Positions 4,845-16,122 of a stretch of 24,000 nucleotides of DNA are shown one piece after another. Every line of letters starts with the position of its first letter. Position 1 is the first letter of the stretch. Both the position numbers and the translations under genes were made by a program. The notes below the pieces were generated by a model. That model worked only from the letters and a program-made list of their open reading frames with translations, did not search any database and was not told where the DNA came from. Origin of the DNA: Legionella genomosp. 1 (GTDB lineage: Bacteria > Pseudomonadota > Gammaproteobacteria > UBA6186 > Azoamicaceae); the NCBI GenBank assembly GCA_945878715.1, contig CAMCTX010000006.1, positions 5,384 to 29,383 on the forward strand, in the 5' to 3' direction.

Positions 4845-6554
4845 ATGCTCACACCCACAGTCTACCAAGCTCGCTTAGAACAAGAAGAAAAGCTGATCCA
4901 AAGATACCAAGCAGTAATCGACCAACAAAACGCCACGATCGATTCAATACGTGCAGACTTTGACATTAAAATCGCAGGCATTAACCAACAACAATTAGCA
5001 TTCGATCAAAAACAAAAATTGCTAACAGTGTACATGGAATGTTTAAGAAATTATTTACACCTTTGGGAGTCTTATACACCCACCAATCTGGATGCGCCAC
5101 TCGAGGCTGAGCATGGTAAAACCAGACTATCCAGAGATGGTACAGAAGTGACTTTCAGAACATTGATTGATAGACAGCACAAAGCCTATCAGGATCGTAT
5201 TGTGCAGTGTGCACAGGGTATTATCGAAGATTATAAAGCCTTTTTAAACAATCGCATGACGGTTTTTGTAGAAGATACCTTTCTCATCAATCCTCAGAGT
5301 CAAGCCTTAATCGATCAAGAACTAGCACGTTTTAGCGCTGCCTTGTACAACCCAGTGGTTGCACACTATGCATCATTTGTTTTTCCACAGACAGAGGCTT
5401 TGGTGCGTGATTGTCTTTGTGAAACACAGGCAGATTTTCTTGAAATCCAAAATCAGTATGTTCGTTGTTTGGATGCACAACCTGTGGTTGTAGAACAAAG
5501 CGATGTTTTTCAAGGCGACACACGAGAAAAAATTGAAATATTAAGGTCTCAGTATTTGGAAATCCTTCCGAGTGATGTGAGCAGTATGATTTATACCTGG
5601 TGTGGCAGTGGCGATCTACAGGCTTTGGCCCAACATCTTCAAGATAGTACTGAATCACCTTTTCATGTCAGTGCTTATCTGAAGCATCATGCACCAGAGG
5701 CCCTGCATAGGGCTTGTGGTGCTAATCAATTAATGCTTGTCAAACAATTGCTGGATGAAGGTGTGAAACCCATGCCCGATCGCTATGCTTATCCACCCGT
5801 TCATTATGCCGCTTTATATTCACATCACGATACCATCCCTATTTTGGAGGCACTTTATCAACACGATCATCAGACCATGATGCATACAGGACCCAGAAGG
5901 CAAATGCCTTTGCATACAGCTGCAGCCTCTGGTAATGTCTATGCAGTGATGTGGTTGCTTCACAGAGCGGCTCCGATCAATGCACACGATGCCGACGGCA
6001 ATACGCCCCTACATTGTGCAGTCTTGTACGATCAGGCGGTGATTGTGCGGTTATTATGTTCACAAGGGGCTCTATTTCTGTACAACCATCATCAATTGAC
6101 ACCGCTTGCTTTGGCCATACGTTGGGAAAAACAGGAAGCCCTGAAGGCTTTTGATGAAATACAGTTGTCGATGGTCGAGCGTATAGCCTTAGCCAGTTCC
6201 TATGTTTCACACCGATTATCGCTCGGGAGTAGACGACGTATAGAAAGCGTGGCTGCGGCATTATCCCCCCCAGGACAAGTATTACCAGACAGTACCGATG
6301 ACATCATGCAAGCGATGCGAAGAGGTGCCCTAACAGCGTTTGAAGATCCACCTGTGGCCTCAATACGATGCACAGTCAAAGCACCCTCACCTCAAGCGAA
6401 AGCTATAGCCTCTAAAAAATTTCCTGTGTTATTCCATTTTCCTCGGTTAAGGCAGAAGAAACTAGGCGTGGAAGAAATAAGTCATTCAACTACAGAATCA
6501 GGATACACAGCCATAGAATTAGAACCTATTAAATCAAGTCAGATAACACTTTAG
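4845..6554 (+). CDS. Ankyrin-repeat protein with an N-terminal coiled coil and an acidic, Ser/Thr-rich C-terminus; candidate secreted effector
   Basis: 569-aa ORF. About 4-5 ANK repeats lie at roughly aa 250-438 (nt ~5592-6158), for example PLHTAAASGNVYAVMWLLHRAAPINAHDADGNTPLHCAVLYDQAVIVRLLCSQGA. The N-terminal ~70 aa are Gln/Lys/Ile-rich with heptad character. No signal peptide is present. The AAGGA motif 6 nt upstream of the ATG is a plausible RBS. Confidence 0.8.
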   Translation: MLTPTVYQARLEQEEKLIQRYQAVIDQQNATIDSIRADFDIKIAGINQQQLAFDQKQKLLTVYMECLRNYLHLWESYTPTNLDAPLEAEHGKTRLSRDGTEVTFRTLIDRQHKAYQDRIVQCAQGIIEDYKAFLNNRMTVFVEDTFLINPQSQALIDQELARFSAALYNPVVAHYASFVFPQTEALVRDCLCETQADFLEIQNQYVRCLDAQPVVVEQSDVFQGDTREKIEILRSQYLEILPSDVSSMIYTWCGSGDLQALAQHLQDSTESPFHVSAYLKHHAPEALHRACGANQLMLVKQLLDEGVKPMPDRYAYPPVHYAALYSHHDTIPILEALYQHDHQTMMHTGPRRQMPLHTAAASGNVYAVMWLLHRAAPINAHDADGNTPLHCAVLYDQAVIVRLLCSQGALFLYNHHQLTPLALAIRWEKQEALKAFDEIQLSMVERIALASSYVSHRLSLGSRRRIESVAAALSPPGQVLPDSTDDIMQAMRRGALTAFEDPPVASIRCTVKAPSPQAKAIASKKFPVLFHFPRLRQKKLGVEEISHSTTESGYTAIELEPIKSSQITL

Positions 6555-6563
6555 GCTAAGTAG

Positions 6564-6591
6564 TTCACAGAACATTCGCCAAGACTATCTA
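6564..6591 (+). promoter_or_regulatory. Candidate glyA promoter
   Basis: TTCACA (6564-6569), a 16-nt spacer, then TATCTA (6586-6591), about 64 nt upstream of the glyA ATG. This is a motif match only. Confidence 0.25.
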
Positions 6592-6654
6592 AGTCAGGTA
6601 AGATAGCATCTGTAGGGGCAGGTCTGAAGTGCCGGCCCTATCTAGGAGACCTGA

Positions 6655-7914
6655 ATGGCCCATTTTTATTCCGATCAGACTCTCGCCGATTTCGACCCAC
6701 CCCTGTGGGCGGCTATTAGGGGCGAGCAGCAGCGTCAGGAAGATCATATCGAACTCATTGCTTCTGAAAATTATGTGAGCCCTAGGGTTTTAGCCGCACA
6801 AGGCTCCGTTTTAACCAATAAATACGCCGAAGGTTACCCGGGTAAGCGCTACTATGGGGGCTGTGAATATGTCGATCAAGCCGAACTACTAGCTATCGCG
6901 CGTGCCAAAGAACTCTTTGGGGCCGCCTATGCCAATGTGCAGCCCCATTCAGGATCACAGGCCAATGCGGTGGCCTATATGGCTTTGCTTTCGCCTGGCG
7001 ATACTATTTTAGGGATGAGCCTAACCCATGGGGGGCATTTAACCCACGGGGCGAGTTTTAATTTCTCAGGTCGTTGTTATAAAGCTATTCAATATGGGGT
7101 AAAGCCTGAAACGGGTTTAATTGATTACGATCAGGTGCGTGCCCTTGCTTTGGAACATAAACCTAAACTCATTGTCGCAGGCTTTTCAGCCTATTCTAGA
7201 ATTGTTGATTGGCAGCAGTTTAGAGAAATAGCCGACAGCATTGGGGCTTATTTAATGGTAGACATGGCCCATGTGGCGGGTTTAGTGGCCACCGGTTTAT
7301 ACCCTTCACCCATCAATATTGCCGATGTTACAACCACGACCACGCATAAAACCTTAAGAGGTCCGCGTGGGGGCTTGGTGTTGGCGCGTGCCAATCCCGT
7401 GATTGAAAAAAAGCTCAATGCCGCGCTTTTCCCCGGTTTACAAGGAGGCCCTCTCATGCACGTCATCGCTGCCAAAGCGGTGGCTTTTAAAGAAGCACTG
7501 GATCCAGCCTTTAAAAATTATCAACAGCAAATTTTAAATAATGCACGTTTTTTTGCAGAGGGTCTTAGCAAGCAAGGCTTTAAGATTATTTCCGGGGGTA
7601 CGGATAATCATTTATTTTTAGTGGATCTCTCAGGCCAAGGCATTACCGGTCAGCAAGCCGAAGCGCTTTTAGAACAGGCCAATATTACCTTGAATAAAAA
7701 TACCATTCCCAATGATCCTTTAGGTCCTGTAGTAACCAGTGGATTACGCATAGGCACCCCCGCTATTACGACGCGCGGCTTTAAAGAACCCGAAGTACAG
7801 TGCCTGGTAGATTGGATCTCGGCCATTCTGAAACAGCCTTCTGATAGGGCGCTTTTACAAGGTATACGCTCGGAAGTTTTAGCCCTGTGTCATCGTTTTC
7901 CGGTGTATGCCTAA
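6655..7914 (+). CDS. glyA: Serine hydroxymethyltransferase
   Basis: 419-aa ORF with hallmark SHMT motifs: [39 protein letters not shown], and the PLP-lysine context [15 protein letters not shown]. Confidence 0.97.
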
Positions 7915-11577: not shown

Positions 11578-12978
11578 ATGATTCTAATAAAAAAACTATT
11601 AAGCTGCTTTCAGCCTTCTGAACATCTACCAGAGATAGAAGATTCTGAGGTGTTGCAGCAGCAGTATCGCCGTTGGCGCTTGCGCACCTTTTATTCCATG
11701 TATATAGGGTATGCGCTCTATTATTTCACCCGGAAGAACCTAACCTTTATTACACCCTATCTCTGTGCCGATTTAGGCCTTAGCAAAACCAATATTGGGT
11801 GGTTAATCACTATTTTGTCTATCAGTTATGGGATTAGCAAGTTCGCCAGCGGTGTTTTATCTGATCGTGCAAATACCCGTTATCTTATGGCCTTTGGTTT
11901 ACTCATTACAGGGCTTTGTAGCCTATGTTTTGGTCTTTCCTCTTCCTTAATGTGGTTGGGTATTTTCTGGGGCATCAATGGATGGTTTCAAGGCTGGGGC
12001 TGGCCTGCCTGTACCAAACAATTAACGCATTGGTTTAGTCGCAAAGAACGTGGTAAATGGTGGGGCGTTTTTTCAACTTCCCATACCGTTGGTGGTTGTT
12101 TAATTGCCTATGTGGCTGGGTCTGCTGCGATGGCTTATGGGTGGCGTGTTGCCATGTTTATCACAGGTACGATGGGTGTGGTCGCAGGTCTATGGTTGGT
12201 GAATCGCTTAAGAGATATGCCTCAAGCCTTGGGATTACCGGGTGTTGAAAGTTATAGACAGCGTTTTAGGGGTGAAGCCTTAGAAGAGGGTGAAGCGCTA
12301 GAAAATACAGAACATTTATCCGTCAAACAGATCCTGATGGAGCAAGTTTTATCCAATCGTTATATTTGGCTTTTGGCTATCAGTTACTTTTTTGTCTATG
12401 TGGTGCGTACGGCGGTCAATGATTGGGGGCCTTTGTATTTGGTTCAAGTCAAAGGCTACAGTCCTGTAGCCGCCGGGGCCTGCATTTCTTTTTTTGAAGT
12501 CGGTGGTTTTCTAGGCATGTTATTTGCCGGTTGGGGATCCGATTATTGGTTTGGGGGACGGCGTATACCCTTTGTGATCTTCAATTCTGTAGCCATGATT
12601 TTTAGTATTCTGGGTCTTTGGTTTTTAGGATCTGATCAGCCTATTTTAATGGCCTTATTGGTCGGTGTGATTGGCTTTTTAGTTTTTGGACCACAGATGT
12701 TGGTGGGTTTAGCCGCTGCAGAATGGGTTAACAAAGGTGCTGCCAGTACGTCTAATGGATTTGTGGGGGCCTTTGCGTGTTTTGGGGCCGCTGCTGCAGG
12801 TTATCCGCTGGGTCGTATGACCGATCTTTGGGGTTGGTACTATGGCTTTATCTTAAGCTTAGTGATTTGCTCTATGATCTGTGTGCTTGTTTTATTGCCA
12901 CTATGGTCTGTGAAGAAGGGAAGACCGCCTGTGCATGAAGCAGATGCAGGTGTTGAAGGTGTAGCTACCTCGGCTTAA
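11578..12978 (+). CDS. MFS organophosphate:phosphate antiporter (UhpC/UhpT/GlpT family)
   Basis: 466-aa, 12-TM-type ORF. The N-terminal block RRWRLRTFYSMYIGYALYYFTRKNLTFITPYL..GISKFASGVLSDRANTRYLMAFGL matches the conserved OPA-family motifs (Y.FYF.RKN; SKF..G..SDR.N.R) as I recall them from E. coli UhpC/GlpT. AGGTGG lies 5 nt upstream of the ATG. The substrate (hexose-6-P versus glycerol-3-P) cannot be decided by eye. Confidence 0.85.
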   Translation: MILIKKLLSCFQPSEHLPEIEDSEVLQQQYRRWRLRTFYSMYIGYALYYFTRKNLTFITPYLCADLGLSKTNIGWLITILSISYGISKFASGVLSDRANTRYLMAFGLLITGLCSLCFGLSSSLMWLGIFWGINGWFQGWGWPACTKQLTHWFSRKERGKWWGVFSTSHTVGGCLIAYVAGSAAMAYGWRVAMFITGTMGVVAGLWLVNRLRDMPQALGLPGVESYRQRFRGEALEEGEALENTEHLSVKQILMEQVLSNRYIWLLAISYFFVYVVRTAVNDWGPLYLVQVKGYSPVAAGACISFFEVGGFLGMLFAGWGSDYWFGGRRIPFVIFNSVAMIFSILGLWFLGSDQPILMALLVGVIGFLVFGPQMLVGLAAAEWVNKGAASTSNGFVGAFACFGAAAAGYPLGRMTDLWGWYYGFILSLVICSMICVLVLLPLWSVKKGRPPVHEADAGVEGVATSA

Positions 12979-12999
12979 TCAGCCTGCAAGCTCAACTAA

Positions 13000-13076
13000 T
13001 TAGTATAAGCTTTCATCGAAGTTAGTCCTTCTCCCGATTGCGGGAGAAGGTGGCCCGAAGGGCCGGATGAGGGTTG
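13000..13076. repeat. Left inverted-repeat arm (two stacked hairpins)
   Basis: 13010-13076 is the exact reverse complement of 13413-13479. 13000-13009 pairs with 13480-13489 with 2 mismatches. Internal hairpins: CCTTCTCCC-GATTGC-GGGAGAAGG (13027-13050) and GGCCC-GAA-GGGCC (13052-13064). Confidence 0.95.
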
Positions 13077-13404
13077 CGTTTCGATTTAAAACATCGTAAA
13101 TGGTATTTAAAACACTATTCCATGAATGGGTAACTTCATTGTTCCAAAAACGTAATACTTTGAACCCCAATGATTCCAAAAATTCGGTGCGATTTTGATC
13201 GTAGGTTTGATTGTCTAGATGTTGGCTACCGTCTAACTCAATAATTATTTTCTTTCTTAAACATACAAAATCTACAATATAGGTGCCTATTATTCTTTGT
13301 CGACGAAATTTGTACCCAGAAAATCGACGTCCTTGCAGTGCAAACCATAACTGACCTTCTGTGGTTGTCTGAAATCTTCTTAAATCTCTAGCGCGATCTT
13401 TCAT
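13000..13404 (-). CDS. DUF559 domain protein (Vsr-like / PD-(D/E)xK endonuclease fold)
   Basis: The translation shows the DUF559 pattern ARDLRR..T..E..LW..L..RRFSGYKFRRQ..IG.YIVDFVC...K.IIELDG.QH......D..R...L...GF.VLRFWNNEV. The start is taken at MKDRARDL (ATG 13402-13404), just inside the right arm; the upstream ATG at 13420-13422 lies within the repeat. The last 25 codons (ATLIRPFGPPSPAIGRRTNFDESLY) are encoded by the left arm. Confidence 0.8.
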   Translation of the reverse strand: MKDRARDLRRFQTTTEGQLWFALQGRRFSGYKFRRQRIIGTYIVDFVCLRKKIIIELDGSQHLDNQTYDQNRTEFLESLGFKVLRFWNNEVTHSWNSVLNTIYDVLNRNATLIRPFGPPSPAIGRRTNFDESLY

Positions 13405-13412
13405 AACGCATT

Positions 13413-13489
13413 CAACCCTCATCCGGCCCTTCGGGCCACCTTCTCCCGCAATCGGGAGAAGGACTAACTTCGATGAAAGTTTATGCTAA
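13413..13489. repeat. Right inverted-repeat arm (two stacked hairpins)
   Basis: Mirror image of the left arm. Hairpins: GGCCC-TTC-GGGCC (13425-13437) and CCTTCTCCC-GCAATC-GGGAGAAGG (13439-13462). Confidence 0.95.
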
Positions 13490-13525
13490 AAGCGCGCTGC
13501 GTCTATCCGATAAATAGCTGAGTTT

Positions 13526-14818
13526 TTAGAGGCGTTTATCCAACCCCACAAAATCACGCTCCAAAGGCCCTGTATAGCGCTGACGGGGTCTGCCTATCTT
13601 CAGTTCAGGATCGCCTAGCATTTCATTCCAGTGTGCAATCCAGCCAATGGTTCTGGCAATCGCGAAAATCACGGTAAACATATTGCTGGGGATCCCAATG
13701 GCTTTAAGAATCATCCCCGAATAAAAATCCACATTGGGGTATAGTTTTTTCTCGACAAAATAGGGATCTTCAAGCGCAATACTTTCAAGCTTCATCGCTA
13801 ATGCAAAGAGGGGATCGTCTTTGATCTTTAGGGCTTCCATCACTTCATGATAACTTTCGCGTATCACCTTGGCACGGGGATCAAAAGACTTATACACACG
13901 GTGTCCAAAACCCATCAGCCTAAAGGGATCATTTTTATCTTTGGCTTTGGCAATATATTTAGGGATCTGTGTTACATCCCCAATCTCATGCAGCATATTC
14001 AACACGGCCTCGTTCGCGCCGCCATGCGCAGGGCCCCAGAGGGCTGCAATACCCGCCGAGATACAGGCAAAAGGATTAGCCCCCGAAGAGCCGGCTAGAC
14101 GCACGGTAGAAGTCGAAGCATTTTGTTCATGATCTGCATGTAAGATAAAGATCCGATCCATGGCCCGCGTAATGACAGGGTTTAAGTGTTCAGGTTCTGT
14201 GGGGACTGAAAACATCATATGTAAAAAGTTCTGGGCATAATCCAAATCATTTCTGGGAAAGACAAAGGGTTGCCCCAGTGAGTATTTGTAGGCCATGGCG
14301 GCGATGGTGGGCATCTTTGCCACCAAACGTAAGGCGGCAAGCTTGCGATGCTCAGGATTTTTAATTTCCAAGGAATCATGGTAGAAGGCCGACAAAGCAC
14401 CCACCACCCCACACATAATCGCCATGGGATGTGCATTTCTTGGAAAACCCTGAAAAAAGTTACCCAGCTGTTCGTGGATCATCGTGTGGTGACGCACCTC
14501 ATCCACAAAAGCATCTTTTTCAGCACGTGTGGGGAGTTCGCCATTCAAGAGTAAATAACAAACTTCCAGGTGGTCCGATTGTTCGGCTAATTGCGCAATC
14601 GGATAACCTCGATAGAGCAGAATGCTCTTATCCCCATCGATATAGGTAATCGCAGAGCTGCAGGATGCTGTGGATTGGAAACCCGGATCATAGGTGAAAA
14701 CCCCATGGTTTTGTAAATGGCCTATAGCTACAAGCGGGGGGCCTGCAGTGCCTACTAAGAGGGGTAACTCGATGGGTTCTCGATTGGGAAGATGGAGGCT
14801 AGCCTTAGCATCGTTCAT
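13526..14818 (-). CDS. gltA: Citrate synthase (type II)
   Basis: 430-aa ORF with diagnostic motifs ([38 protein letters not shown]) and an N-terminus similar to E. coli GltA. Confidence 0.97.
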
Positions 14819-14946
14819 ACTATCATCCTTGCAAGTAGTCTTGTTTCAGTTCTTCAGTATAAGAGCAAATACAGAAGATTGAACCCCCTATTCTGTACTA
14901 GACTAAACGGGTGTCGGCGTTTATGCGATCAGGGGAGGATCAAGCG

Positions 14947-15375
14947 ATGTTAGATAGTGGATTAACAAAAATTTTAAGTGGATGCTTTCTAAGCATGCTA
15001 CTAAGTTTTGCGGTCTATGCAGATTCATTTACTGTCCCCCAAGCCCAAGCAGCACAGAACACACAAGCAGCACAAACAACGCAACAAGGAGGCCAAACAA
15101 CACAACCTCCAGTTGCAGTACCCAGTCCTGCTTCGATAGCTTACCAGACCCAAATGCTCGCGCTATCTAATGCGATGAGCGCGAAAATTGCACAGATCCA
15201 AGCCATACAAAAGCAAATCGATGCAGAGATTTATCCAGCGTCTCTCCCACCCTTACAAGCGCAAAAGGCACAGCTGCAAAAAGAATTGGATGCCCTTAAT
15301 CTGAGTCAGCAGCAATTTGTTGCACAGAAAACAGCAGCTGATATAACCACATCGTTACAACAGGCTAAACCTTAA
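14947..15375 (+). CDS. Signal-peptide coiled-coil protein, paralog 1 (Gln/Thr-rich linker plus one repeat unit); function unknown
   Basis: The start is reassigned to the ATG at 14947 because GGAGGA lies 7 nt upstream; the track start at 14911 is a GTG. Signal peptide: MLDSGLTKILSGCFLSMLLSFAVYA|DS. It shares the N-terminal SP.SIAYQ.Q block, a P.LQAQK..L.KELDAL unit and the C-terminal SLQQ(A/T)KP* with the next gene. Confidence 0.65.
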   Translation: MLDSGLTKILSGCFLSMLLSFAVYADSFTVPQAQAAQNTQAAQTTQQGGQTTQPPVAVPSPASIAYQTQMLALSNAMSAKIAQIQAIQKQIDAEIYPASLPPLQAQKAQLQKELDALNLSQQQFVAQKTAADITTSLQQAKP

Positions 15376-15417
15376 AACAAATACGAAGCATGCGTACAAT
15401 CATGGAGGTATGAAGGG

Positions 15418-16122
15418 ATGTTACATAGATTTTTGAGAAAAATGGCGGGTGTATTTTTAGTCGGTATTCTAGGGAGTGGCTCGATAACGGCTGAACCTCA
15501 AGCAGTAGCCTCAAGCCCAGAAGCCATTGCCTATCAGGCTCAAATATCAGAACTGTTCAAATCGAGGTTTCAGAAAGCCGAACAGATTATGGCTGTAGAA
15601 CAGAAAATCCGTCAAGCGACGGAACCGACTTTACAAGCACAGAAGGACCTTCTAAATAAAGAATTAGACGCAGCACTAGAGAAAGAAGGAGCTTTACCTA
15701 ATAAGGTAGATGAGGAAAAAGTGGCACAGCTTCTGGCTGTACAAAAGCAAATCGATAGGGCGACGGATCCAGCCTTACAGGCTCAAAGAGAACAGCTGAA
15801 AAAAGAACTAGACGCACTGGATGTGCAGGCAAAGGTGCTGCAGGCCAGTGATATAGGTCAAGCGGTAGCCAAAGAGATGTGGGCCAAGATGAGTCCCGAA
15901 GAGCAAGCTGTTTCTGATCAGATAAATGAAAAAGTGGCACAGCTTCTGGTTATACAAAAGCAAATTGAAATGGCGACTGATCCAGCGGTTATTGAACCTT
16001 TAAGGGCAAAGGCAGTGTTGCTAATAAATGAATTAAAGCCGCTTATGAACAAAATGGTACCGCTTATGAACAAAGAACTAAACTCTAGTATGGGTCAGTC
16101 CTTACAACAGACTAAACCTTAA
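15418..16122 (+). CDS. Signal-peptide coiled-coil protein, paralog 2 (three repeat units); function unknown
   Basis: 234-aa ORF with signal peptide MLHRFLRKMAGVFLVGILGSGSITA|EP. The unit (K/E)..QL(L/M)..(V/E)QKI....T(D/E)P.LQAQ(K/R)..L.KELDA recurs three times. The stop lies 10 nt before the sdhC ATG, with no terminator between them. Confidence 0.7.
   Translation: MLHRFLRKMAGVFLVGILGSGSITAEPQAVASSPEAIAYQAQISELFKSRFQKAEQIMAVEQKIRQATEPTLQAQKDLLNKELDAALEKEGALPNKVDEEKVAQLLAVQKQIDRATDPALQAQREQLKKELDALDVQAKVLQASDIGQAVAKEMWAKMSPEEQAVSDQINEKVAQLLVIQKQIEMATDPAVIEPLRAKAVLLINELKPLMNKMVPLMNKELNSSMGQSLQQTKP
15715..15987 (+). repeat. Intragenic direct repeat, 213-nt (71-codon) period
   Basis: GAAAAAGTGGCACAGCTTCTGGCTGTACAAAAGCAAATCGATAGGGCGACGGATCCAGCC (15715-15774) recurs as GAAAAAGTGGCACAGCTTCTGGTTATACAAAAGCAAATTGAAATGGCGACTGATCCAGCG (15928-15987). 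The first 22 nt are identical. Confidence 0.85.
16039..16080 (+). repeat. 21-nt (one heptad) tandem duplication
   Basis: CCGCTTATGAACAAAATGGTA followed directly by CCGCTTATGAACAAAGAACTA. The first 15 nt are identical. The encoded peptides are PLMNKMV / PLMNKEL. Confidence 0.85.

Follow-up and report, generated by a model that had tools for sequence, protein, structure and literature searches.

A Vsr-fold DUF559 gene bracketed by inverted BoxC/PIT/TM-type repeats: a portable unit and a candidate partner for an orphan repeat

We describe a compact unit of 490 bp that lies between two convergent genes, one for a major facilitator superfamily (MFS) transporter and one for citrate synthase (gltA), in a stretch of 24,000 nucleotides from Legionella genomosp. 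1 (contig CAMCTX010000006.1 of GCA_945878715.1; this whole stretch is called the window below). The unit consists of a single nuclease gene of the DUF559 family and two inverted arms, the cores of which are, judged by their sequence, copies of the repeat known as BoxC, PIT or TM (TM in what follows). The family and the repeat are both known; their union in a portable cassette and the general association between them are apparently new. The features, in window coordinates, are as follows.

13000-13489, no strand, 490 bp: the portable unit in full, with the DUF559 gene between two inverted arms.
13413-13489, minus strand, 77 nt: gene-upstream arm; its outer 27 nt are specific to the sub-family and its inner part is the predicted TM, directed at the gene.
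13416-13462, minus strand: predicted TM of the upstream arm, read on the minus strand as CCTTCTCCC / GATTGC / GGGAGAAGG / T-GGCCCGAAGGGCC / GGATGAGGG.
13000-13076, plus strand, 77 nt: gene-downstream arm, the reverse complement of the upstream arm.
13027-13073, plus strand: predicted TM of the downstream arm, with pyrimidine (Y) block 13027-13035, loop 13036-13041, purine (R) block 13042-13050, GAA mini-hairpin 13052-13064 and third block 13065-13073.
13000-13404, minus strand: open reading frame (ORF) of the predicted DUF559 nuclease (Vsr fold, PD-(D/E)xK), 134 aa from the ATG at 13404.
11578-12978, plus strand: MFS transporter gene, outside the unit (Pfam MFS_1, E 1e-50).
13526-14818, minus strand: gltA, outside the unit, on the strand of the DUF559 gene and upstream of it (Pfam Citrate_synt, E 1e-140).

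An inverted-repeat search returned the two arms (13000-13076 and 13413-13489) as 77 nt with 97% complementarity and 336 nt between them. A core of 67 nt pairs perfectly and both mismatches are confined to the outer 10 nt, as had been stated in a preliminary description of this DNA. The remaining architecture given there is found as well: the interior is filled by a DUF559 ORF (Pfam E 6e-43, domain encoded by approximately 13087-13401), the GC content is sharply partitioned (0.617 at 13020-13079 in the arm against 0.283 at 13080-13139 just inside), and the unit takes up most of the 547-bp intergenic gap between the convergent MFS gene (end 12978) and gltA (end 13526). The 48-nt inner core of the arm occurs exactly twice in the window, once per strand (0 expected from 100 shuffles), and a TM finder reports the two arms as the only TMs of the window, both intergenic. 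Folded as single-stranded DNA, each arm forms two hairpins (-18.3 kcal/mol, z -3.9). A scan of 12900-13600 with Rfam at E up to 10 gave chance matches only, and between gltA and the DUF559 gene neither a sigma-70-like promoter nor an intrinsic terminator was found, the sole promoter-like site being located inside the ORF.

The ORF (13000-13422, minus strand) matches DUF559 over residues 8-112, and DUF559 and MTES_1575 are the only Pfam families detected on it. An in-frame ATG is also present upstream, at 13422; since homologs begin at MK.RAR and the ATG at 13404 gives MKDRA..., the latter is the likely start. The third block of the upstream TM (13416-13424) ends 11 nt before this ATG and by its position could be a candidate ribosome-binding site. 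At the other end, the reading frame runs into the downstream arm, which contains the stop codon (13000-13002) and approximately 28 codons before it. The C-terminal residues from about 113 to 140 are thus read-through into the left arm, and they are modelled at a predicted local distance difference test (pLDDT) score of approximately 50. In many annotated DUF559 homologs, too, the C-terminal peptide (PSPQPSPRGERE is an example) is arm sequence in translation.

The AlphaFold model of the protein has a mean pLDDT of 82. In a fold search (Foldseek) it matches 3HRL, the crystal structure of NGO0050 from Neisseria gonorrhoeae (template modelling score normalised to the target, TMt, 0.93), then 3R3P, the catalytic domain of the homing endonuclease I-Bth0305I (E 2e-4, TMt 0.79), and E. 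coli Vsr (1VSR, prob 0.99, E 0.045). In sequence comparison 3HRL is found with E 3e-28 by sequence and 2e-42 by profile, and the next match in the PDB is 3R3P with a profile E of 0.0075. The catalytic motif D45...E56-x-D58-x-x-x-H62 is intact here and invariant across 30 homologs, in which D69, R72 and R85-x-W87-N88 (RFWN) are also invariant or nearly so; all of these residues are present in the window protein. The Vsr-like fold and active site anticipated in the preliminary description are thereby recovered, and the ORF is an intact gene for a predicted Vsr-fold nuclease with an intact active site. Among five close units dN/dS (the ratio of nonsynonymous to synonymous substitution rates) ranges from 0.09 to 0.32, therefore the protein is under purifying selection. 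A comparison with PADLOC defence models gave no meaningful match. As a separate observation, several mitoribosomal proteins of Toxoplasma and Tetrahymena contain a domain that matches the model in the fold search (E 5e-4 to 7e-3).

To follow the unit outside the window, homologs of the DUF559 protein with 80-90% identity were traced to their contigs. Besides the window, the gltA/MFS junction is occupied in GCA_020050275.1 (locus L203) and in a JGI metagenome (L206), the gltA proteins of which are 96-97% identical to that of the window. Two relatives with 90-91% identical gltA have an empty site: in GCA_964974325.1 (L208) and GCA_029981675.1 (L222) gltA and the MFS gene stand tail to tail with a spacer of 13 nt and 1 nt, respectively, and both TM and repeat are absent at the junction. 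Given that these empty alleles contain no TM, the arms and the gene came in together, and the simplest reading is a single insertion of both in the ancestor of the occupied clade. A second unit (L001) is located approximately 13 kb away on the GCA_020050275.1 contig, beside miaA, and a further one (L002) lies in an unrelated context in another organism. The alignment of five units shows 79-92% similarity throughout arms and gene, and for units in different contexts (L001, L002) the identity is 79-90% inside and drops to 20-33% directly outside the arm tips. Homology thus stops at the arm tips, so that the mobile entity is exactly the 490 bp bounded by the inverted repeat. The landing between convergent genes that had been suspected from the window is hereby seen at two empty sites; the comparison of the junction in relatives, also proposed at that stage, yields presence and absence of the unit with ends at the arm tips and without target duplication. 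Taken together, these comparisons show a self-contained, portable stretch of DNA in which a small gene for a Vsr-fold nuclease lies between inverted ends that can form hairpins.

Two side observations concern the same loci. The approximately 37 nt that separate the arm from the gltA stop (window 13490-13525; CTCAGCTATTTATCGGATAGACGCAGCGCGCTTT) are conserved in the three occupied lineages, absent at the empty sites and not common to units at other loci; no canonical promoter was seen in this stretch. The synonymous divergence (dS) of the DUF559 orthologs (13087-13404) is 0.18-0.26, against 0.41-0.52 for gltA and 0.37-0.39 for the MFS gene in the same genome pairs, an estimate that is noisy due to the approximately 62 synonymous sites and the small sample; it could reflect later exchange of the unit or compositional constraint. 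As vehicles, plasmids and viruses were considered and set aside: relatives were found in only 36 of 72,556 plasmid records (several being mislabelled chromosomes), and IMG/VR contains only 49.

The arms are of a kind that has been described before. As read from the sequence, the core of each arm is a long-loop variant of the intrastrand-triplex motif that was named BoxC in E. coli (Bergler 1992), PIT by Hoyne & Maher (2000, 2002) and TM or TMECO by Holder et al. 2015 (PMC4666352). In both arms the Y block CCTTCTCCC and the R block GGGAGAAGG pair into a Watson-Crick hairpin of 9 bp (10 with the closing C-G). The third block GGATGAGGG matches the purine block at 9 of 9 positions as a mirror (T allowed for A) and at 7 of 9 as a direct copy. 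The rule that the third purine block is a mirror of the purine arm, not a repeat and not a complement, with T opposite one A, holds across approximately 35 sequence variants: GGGAGAAGG goes with GGATGAGGG, GGGAGAGGG with GGGTGAGGG, GGGGAGG with GGAGGGG and GGGGGAAGG with GGATGGGGG. For asymmetric purine blocks the mirror beats the direct copy by 234 to 6. A third block is present in 439 of 821 hairpins, and in 50 once the downstream sequence has been shuffled. An antiparallel purine-motif triplex requires exactly such a mirror repeat, and the triads that a mirrored purine block would form are G.G-C, A.A-T and T.A-T.

The arms of the window differ from the published form in their second loop. 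Loop 1 has 6 nt, and loop 2 has 14 nt with a hairpin of 5 bp (GGCCC-GAA-GGGCC), so that the published short-loop definition does not cover them and the long-loop class would escape the published searches (1-6 nt for ITxF; 0-10 nt for Hoyne et al.). This class is common in our sample: the inserted hairpins fall into 58 combinations of stem and loop, and 74 of 105 have a triloop of the GNA type. In DNA, mini-hairpins of the form C-GNA-G have an unusually high stability. RNA is reported not to form purine-motif triplexes (PMC4666352); together with the GNA mini-hairpins this points to folded single-stranded DNA as the probable relevant state of the arms.

Previous work has established several properties of the repeat. 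The E. coli TM sequence takes on a stable intrastrand triplex fold in vitro as a single strand, as seen by circular dichroism and nuclear magnetic resonance, and TMs occur in more than 260 genomes, always intergenic and sometimes in inverted pairs (PMC4666352). In E. coli K-12 there are five inverted doublets, four of them convergent with spacers of 16-27 nt by the coordinates of Table 1 in that paper (PMC4666352). The repeat was without promoter or terminator activity and was tied to local genomic variability (PMC4666352). The words endonuclease and ycjD (the DUF559 gene of E. coli) are absent from the text of that paper.

Within a unit the two arms evolve concertedly. Compared across units, arms show 79-97% identity, which makes them approximately as divergent as third codon positions (82-90%), and within each unit the two arms are 92-99% complementary. 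Of the 77 inter-arm pairs, 14 have changed on both sides, a number that was reached by 0 of 500 shuffles and compares with 0-2 in slid controls; each of the variants GAAGTTAGT, GGAGTGATT and GGAGTTATT is found, mirrored, in the two arms of the unit to which it belongs. Compensatory change is also seen inside single arms, in the small second hairpin (GGCCCGAAGGGCC to GGGGCGAAGCCCC or GGCGCGCAGCGCC), though with only 3 compensatory pairs among five close units this local covariation is weak when taken alone. Either the arms exchange information, by gene conversion or by repair of a fold-back intermediate, or their complementarity is selected.

The layout extends well beyond the window. Among DUF559 relatives with 43-57% identity in a metagenomic sample (76 loci evaluable for inverted repeats and 72 for TMs), 49 of 76 genes have a flanking inverted repeat that scores above all 129 displaced controls. 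An upstream TM pointing at the gene is present in 46 of 72 loci (14 on the opposite strand) and a mirrored downstream TM in 39 (opposite 11); 30 loci have a TM on both sides and 55 on at least one. Similar figures are obtained for 23 evaluable relatives in IMG/VR (upstream 18, downstream 17, both 14). Beyond 400 nt from the gene the background density amounts to 0.10 TM per kb, or approximately 0.01 expected per flank, which corresponds to an enrichment of about 65-fold. In 882 kb sampled irrespective of DUF559, the tight TM sandwich was seen around DUF559 only. Flanks of TM type also surround DUF559 genes on plasmid pAQ6 of Picosynechococcus PCC 7002 and in Deinococcus (with opposite polarity), and occur near NGO0050 in N. 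gonorrhoeae. As a rule, a DUF559 gene of this clade is preceded by a TM and followed by its mirrored counterpart. Overall, the association between DUF559 and TM is real, strong, oriented and cross-phylum.

It is also apparently undescribed. Our literature search found no paper that links DUF559 to BoxC/PIT/TM repeats or to any repeat-related role, in line with the preliminary description, whose authors knew of no mobility or repeat-processing role for the family. The same description had considered the unit the best candidate in the window for something undescribed, and this can now be divided: the DUF559-repeat association qualifies, the arms as a new repeat do not (BoxC/PIT/TM has been known since 1992). 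Two variants of the layout are of separate interest. An IMG/VR contig (L241, 1-170) has four tandem TMs of the AAAGGGGGG type directly upstream of its DUF559 gene, and at L121 (3922-4714) the gene lies between two complete inverted doublets (approximately 185 bp each) instead of single arms.

The arm core is far more common without the gene, as solo copies and as gene-less inverted doublets. When species-representative genomes were scanned with the first arm hairpin alone, at least 120 loci were found, among the matches listed, in Alpha-, Beta- and Gammaproteobacteria, Planctomycetes and Chloroflexi; a DUF559 gene stands alongside in 3 of these 120, and the inner 48 nt or so of the arm recur almost verbatim as solo intergenic copies. 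Gene-less convergent doublets with arm-like polarity are common (spacers of 15-162 nt). Across 223 loci, by contrast to the core, the arm's outer 27 nt were never met apart from the gene. The search of other genomes that had been suggested for the arm thus returned solo copies, gene-less doublets and further DUF559 units with the same arms.

We considered the gene-less doublets as deletion derivatives of units and rejected this as a demonstrated origin: searching the spacers for DUF559 remnants with tblastn gave weak matches only (best E 0.003 over 31 aa, at L008). A gene-less inverted pair resembling a miniature inverted-repeat transposable element (MITE) was observed in a metagenome-assembled genome of Legionellales (L020, JBIODT010000022.1, 3683-4009); its arms of 112 nt are 97% complementary, each with a TM in the polarity of the DUF559 unit, around an AT-rich spacer of 103 nt.

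Escherichia coli carries what appears to be a worn version of the arrangement. The DUF559 gene of K-12, ycjD, ends '...SPSP*' within a degenerate TM (L209, NC_000913.3 1345000-1356000, at 6200-6830), and the gene is surrounded by relic TM flanks. TMECO no. 9 (L209, 6204-6239) lies 168 bp downstream of ycjD in non-canonical orientation, in the region upstream of fabI (envM), and the sequencing paper of fabI (envM) is the one cited for BoxC. We also note a duplicate of about 50 nt of the ycjD 3' end downstream of the gene (approximately 6310-6360) and a perfect 17-bp hairpin just upstream of it. Among 5426 complete E. coli genomes, TMs are present in all (median 19 places) and ycjD in 3378; in the genomes that do not have ycjD, its place at the fabI-sapF site is taken by the efflux operon eefRABCD (PMC12817139). 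The number of TMs per chromosome is 1-7 in phylogroup-B2-like entries (UTI89, Nissle) and 15-32 in most others, and O157:H7, which is without ycjD, has 15. A link between ycjD and TM number is suggestive and confounded by phylogeny.

What might the gene do between its repeats? We give even weight, and no more, to the proposal that the unit is a portable cassette, a Vsr-fold DUF559 gene bracketed by inverted BoxC/PIT/TM copies, whose nuclease acts on the folded repeat. Replication forks, cruciforms or transferred DNA are where the folded form would appear for a short time. The nuclease would recognise the folded single-stranded repeat (a hairpin, or triplex plus mini-hairpin) and nick there, after which repair or strand transfer from the gene-bearing copy could spread the gene together with its arms. 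Gene-less doublets and solo repeats would in that case be non-autonomous derivatives or targets. In function such a unit would be akin to RAYT/REPIN or to a free-standing homing endonuclease, with another enzyme fold and a triplex-forming repeat. Both the nuclease action on the repeats and their mobilisation are proposals drawn from the association. In their favour are the portability of the unit, the generality of the layout, the triplex-motif design of the arms and their probable single-stranded state, the co-evolution of the arms, and an intact gene under purifying selection whose closest characterised fold relative is a homing endonuclease. More tentatively, and as the less probable claim, DUF559 proteins in general may be structure-specific nucleases for folded TMs, and the units an unrecognised class of selfish element with gene-less doublets and singlets as its non-autonomous members.

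A number of observations weigh against this proposal. The evidence that DUF559 proteins might process TMs is their association. TM loci were reported to be mostly stable and unassociated with mobile elements or with any class of flanking genes (PMC4666352), and the DUF559 protein VsrA of Caulobacter behaves as a methylation-linked mismatch nuclease (PMC12907096). All 5426 E. coli genomes keep their TMs while 38% are without ycjD, and on the contigs studied distant solo TMs match the gene-flanking TM type in only 3 of 21 cases, a result that speaks against co-evolution of enzyme and repeat. The ends of three independent insertions revealed no target-site duplication or other direct repeat, and no defined target was found. 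Near-identical copies at different loci were not seen; the dS between paralogs is approximately 0.3, therefore there is no sign of recent movement, and all 18 contigs with P0116 show the same context. Finally, one observation that favours the proposal has to be qualified: the spacing of convergent TM pairs is bimodal, 15-162 nt where there is no gene and 337-464 nt where DUF559 is present, and no pair lies in the gap, but this bimodality is partly due to the sampling of loci.

The most serious competitor, which we nonetheless regard as unlikely, is that the gene encodes a solitary repair nuclease of Vsr type (acting for example on T:G mismatches from 5-methylcytosine) that is useful to its host and spreads by ordinary horizontal transfer. 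The TMs would then be elements of expression or insulation (a purine block as ribosome-binding site, a stem that limits translation) or marks of recombination-prone DNA. The similarity of the fold to Vsr, the purifying selection on the gene and the persistence of the unit at one site in three lineages are all consistent with such a role, and the toxicity of Caulobacter VsrA depends on the loss of an unlinked cytosine methyltransferase (PMC12907096). The third TM block stands just upstream of the start codon, and a stem of 77 bp (z -14) is predicted for the full-length transcript. On the other hand, no methyltransferase gene is present among the window ORFs of at least 110 aa (annotated with Pfam, the remainder being assigned by synteny with Pfam-annotated contigs). 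A repair function would also leave unexplained why one gene family is bracketed by oriented TMs at about 65-fold enrichment and why the arms co-evolve. It further sits poorly with the report of TMs without promoter or terminator activity (PMC4666352), and the purine-motif triplex and GNA mini-hairpins point to DNA and not to mRNA.

Next in rank, and in our judgement rather improbable, is that the TMs are primary, spreading or arising independently, and that DUF559 is a free-standing homing-endonuclease gene that has invaded the centre of pre-existing inverted TM doublets, the arms being the two halves of its target. Gene-less convergent doublets with the right polarity and short spacers are common, including four of the five inverted doublets of K-12 (PMC4666352), and TM pairs come in two discrete size classes; moreover, the nearest characterised relative of the fold is a homing endonuclease and no target duplication was found. 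The empty alleles L208 and L222, however, hold no TM doublet, the outer 27 nt of the arm are seen only with the gene, and no empty doublet was found that has an occupied ortholog.

It might also be argued that the gene is an invertible segment by virtue of its inverted arms, a switch that works by programmed inversion. Among predicted targets of programmed inversion, DUF559 proteins show a 14-fold enrichment (PMC9881135), the nearest published hint of the association, and recombination between the arms would homogenise them. This enrichment, however, follows directly from the inverted-repeat layout, the three orthologous loci all have the gene in one orientation with respect to gltA, and no invertase or recombinase gene lies nearby, which makes the explanation very improbable. 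A fixed relic or bidirectional terminator palindrome with a decaying ORF, which the preliminary description had named as the deflating outcome, has the location between convergent genes and the degenerate flanks of E. coli ycjD in its favour, but is scarcely credible given an intact ORF with its catalytic residues and a dN/dS well below 1, the lack of any terminator-like site found, the presence/absence polymorphism at the site and the copies elsewhere.

The DUF559 family is thus the first concrete candidate partner for the BoxC/PIT/TM repeats. The repeat was first seen in 1992 beside E. coli fabI, and no function, gene or dispersal mechanism has been found for it (PMC4666352); DUF559 (COG2852) is a very common family of small nucleases with a crystal structure, the substrate of which is not known. 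The association gives each of them a concrete hypothesis, testable in E. coli (YcjD and 23 mapped repeats) or with N. gonorrhoeae NGO0050. Should the enzyme indeed act on the folded repeat, selfish DNA within genomes would gain a new pairing of enzyme and repeat, and the protein would be one of the few that read a triplex or mini-hairpin of DNA in vivo; a folded TM as substrate would explain the origin of the repeats, their spread across phyla and the instability of the genome near them. We see real potential here to explain a repeat that has been an orphan for 30 years.

Some neighbouring features of the window deserve mention. A protein of 569 aa with ankyrin repeats is encoded at 4845-6554, between rlmB and glyA; the contig of GCA_020050275.1, syntenic in other respects, lacks this gene and has an ORF of 852 aa between nusB and the ferrochelatase gene instead. 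The ankyrin proteins suggest a host-associated gammaproteobacterium (Legionellales/Berkiella-like). Between gltA and sdhC, at 14911-16122, there are two adjoining repeat-rich ORFs (154 and 234 aa, with QAQK...ELDA motifs), neither with a Pfam match.

Compared with known systems, the arms resemble BoxC/PIT/TM in the three-block design of their core, with a mirrored third block carrying T opposite one A, in their intergenic location and in their occurrence as solo copies and inverted pairs. They differ by the 14-nt mini-hairpin in loop 2 and by the additional outer part of 27 nt, and above all the repeats here bracket a nuclease gene, whereas neither a gene nor a mobile element was found to go with them in the earlier study (PMC4666352).

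The preliminary description had likened the unit to RAYT transposases and their REP/REPIN sequences. In layout the analogy is apt, since the arm core is far more common without the gene: in both cases a small gene for a DNA-processing enzyme stands between inverted hairpin-forming repeats, there is no target duplication, and elsewhere in genomes the flanking repeat is found in far greater numbers, as singlets and inverted doublets. Membership of that family does not follow. The enzyme has a PD-(D/E)xK Vsr fold instead of an HUH Y1 domain, and the repeat has no GTAG head. The DUF559 gene, moreover, is multi-copy (at least two copies, the contig of GCA_020050275.1 carrying two units) and polymorphic for insertion, against the single-copy, vertically inherited gene that defines RAYTs. 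The correspondence between genomic and gene-flanking TM type, assessed within contigs, is the 3 of 21 distant TMs given above.

Homing endonucleases of the I-Bth0305I (EDxHD) type are the closest characterised relatives of the fold and share with the unit a selfish nuclease gene with occupied and empty alleles at a conserved site. I-Bth0305I is encoded within a group I intron of a phage and contains an additional region for DNA binding, whereas the DUF559 unit is free-standing and, unlike a homing endonuclease gene, brings its own inverted repeats into a site that lacks them. With Vsr and Caulobacter VsrA the protein has in common the fold, the catalytic constellation and the status of a single small nuclease without partners encoded nearby. 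It differs in that no cytosine-5 methyltransferase gene is linked to it in the window (unlinked pairs do exist, as for Caulobacter VsrA), and from a repair function one would not expect oriented triplex repeats to either side of the gene.

Insertion sequences of the IS200/IS605 group and MITEs, lastly, are similar in their small size, their structured ends (folded single strands in IS200/IS605) and the absence of a target duplication. The terminal inverted repeats (77 nt at 97%, with arms that are homologous in five units) and the gene-less short derivatives with the same ends, such as L020, extend this likeness. The ends of IS200/IS605, however, are asymmetric subterminal hairpins where the unit has long, nearly perfect inverted repeats, and DUF559 is not a known transposase family.

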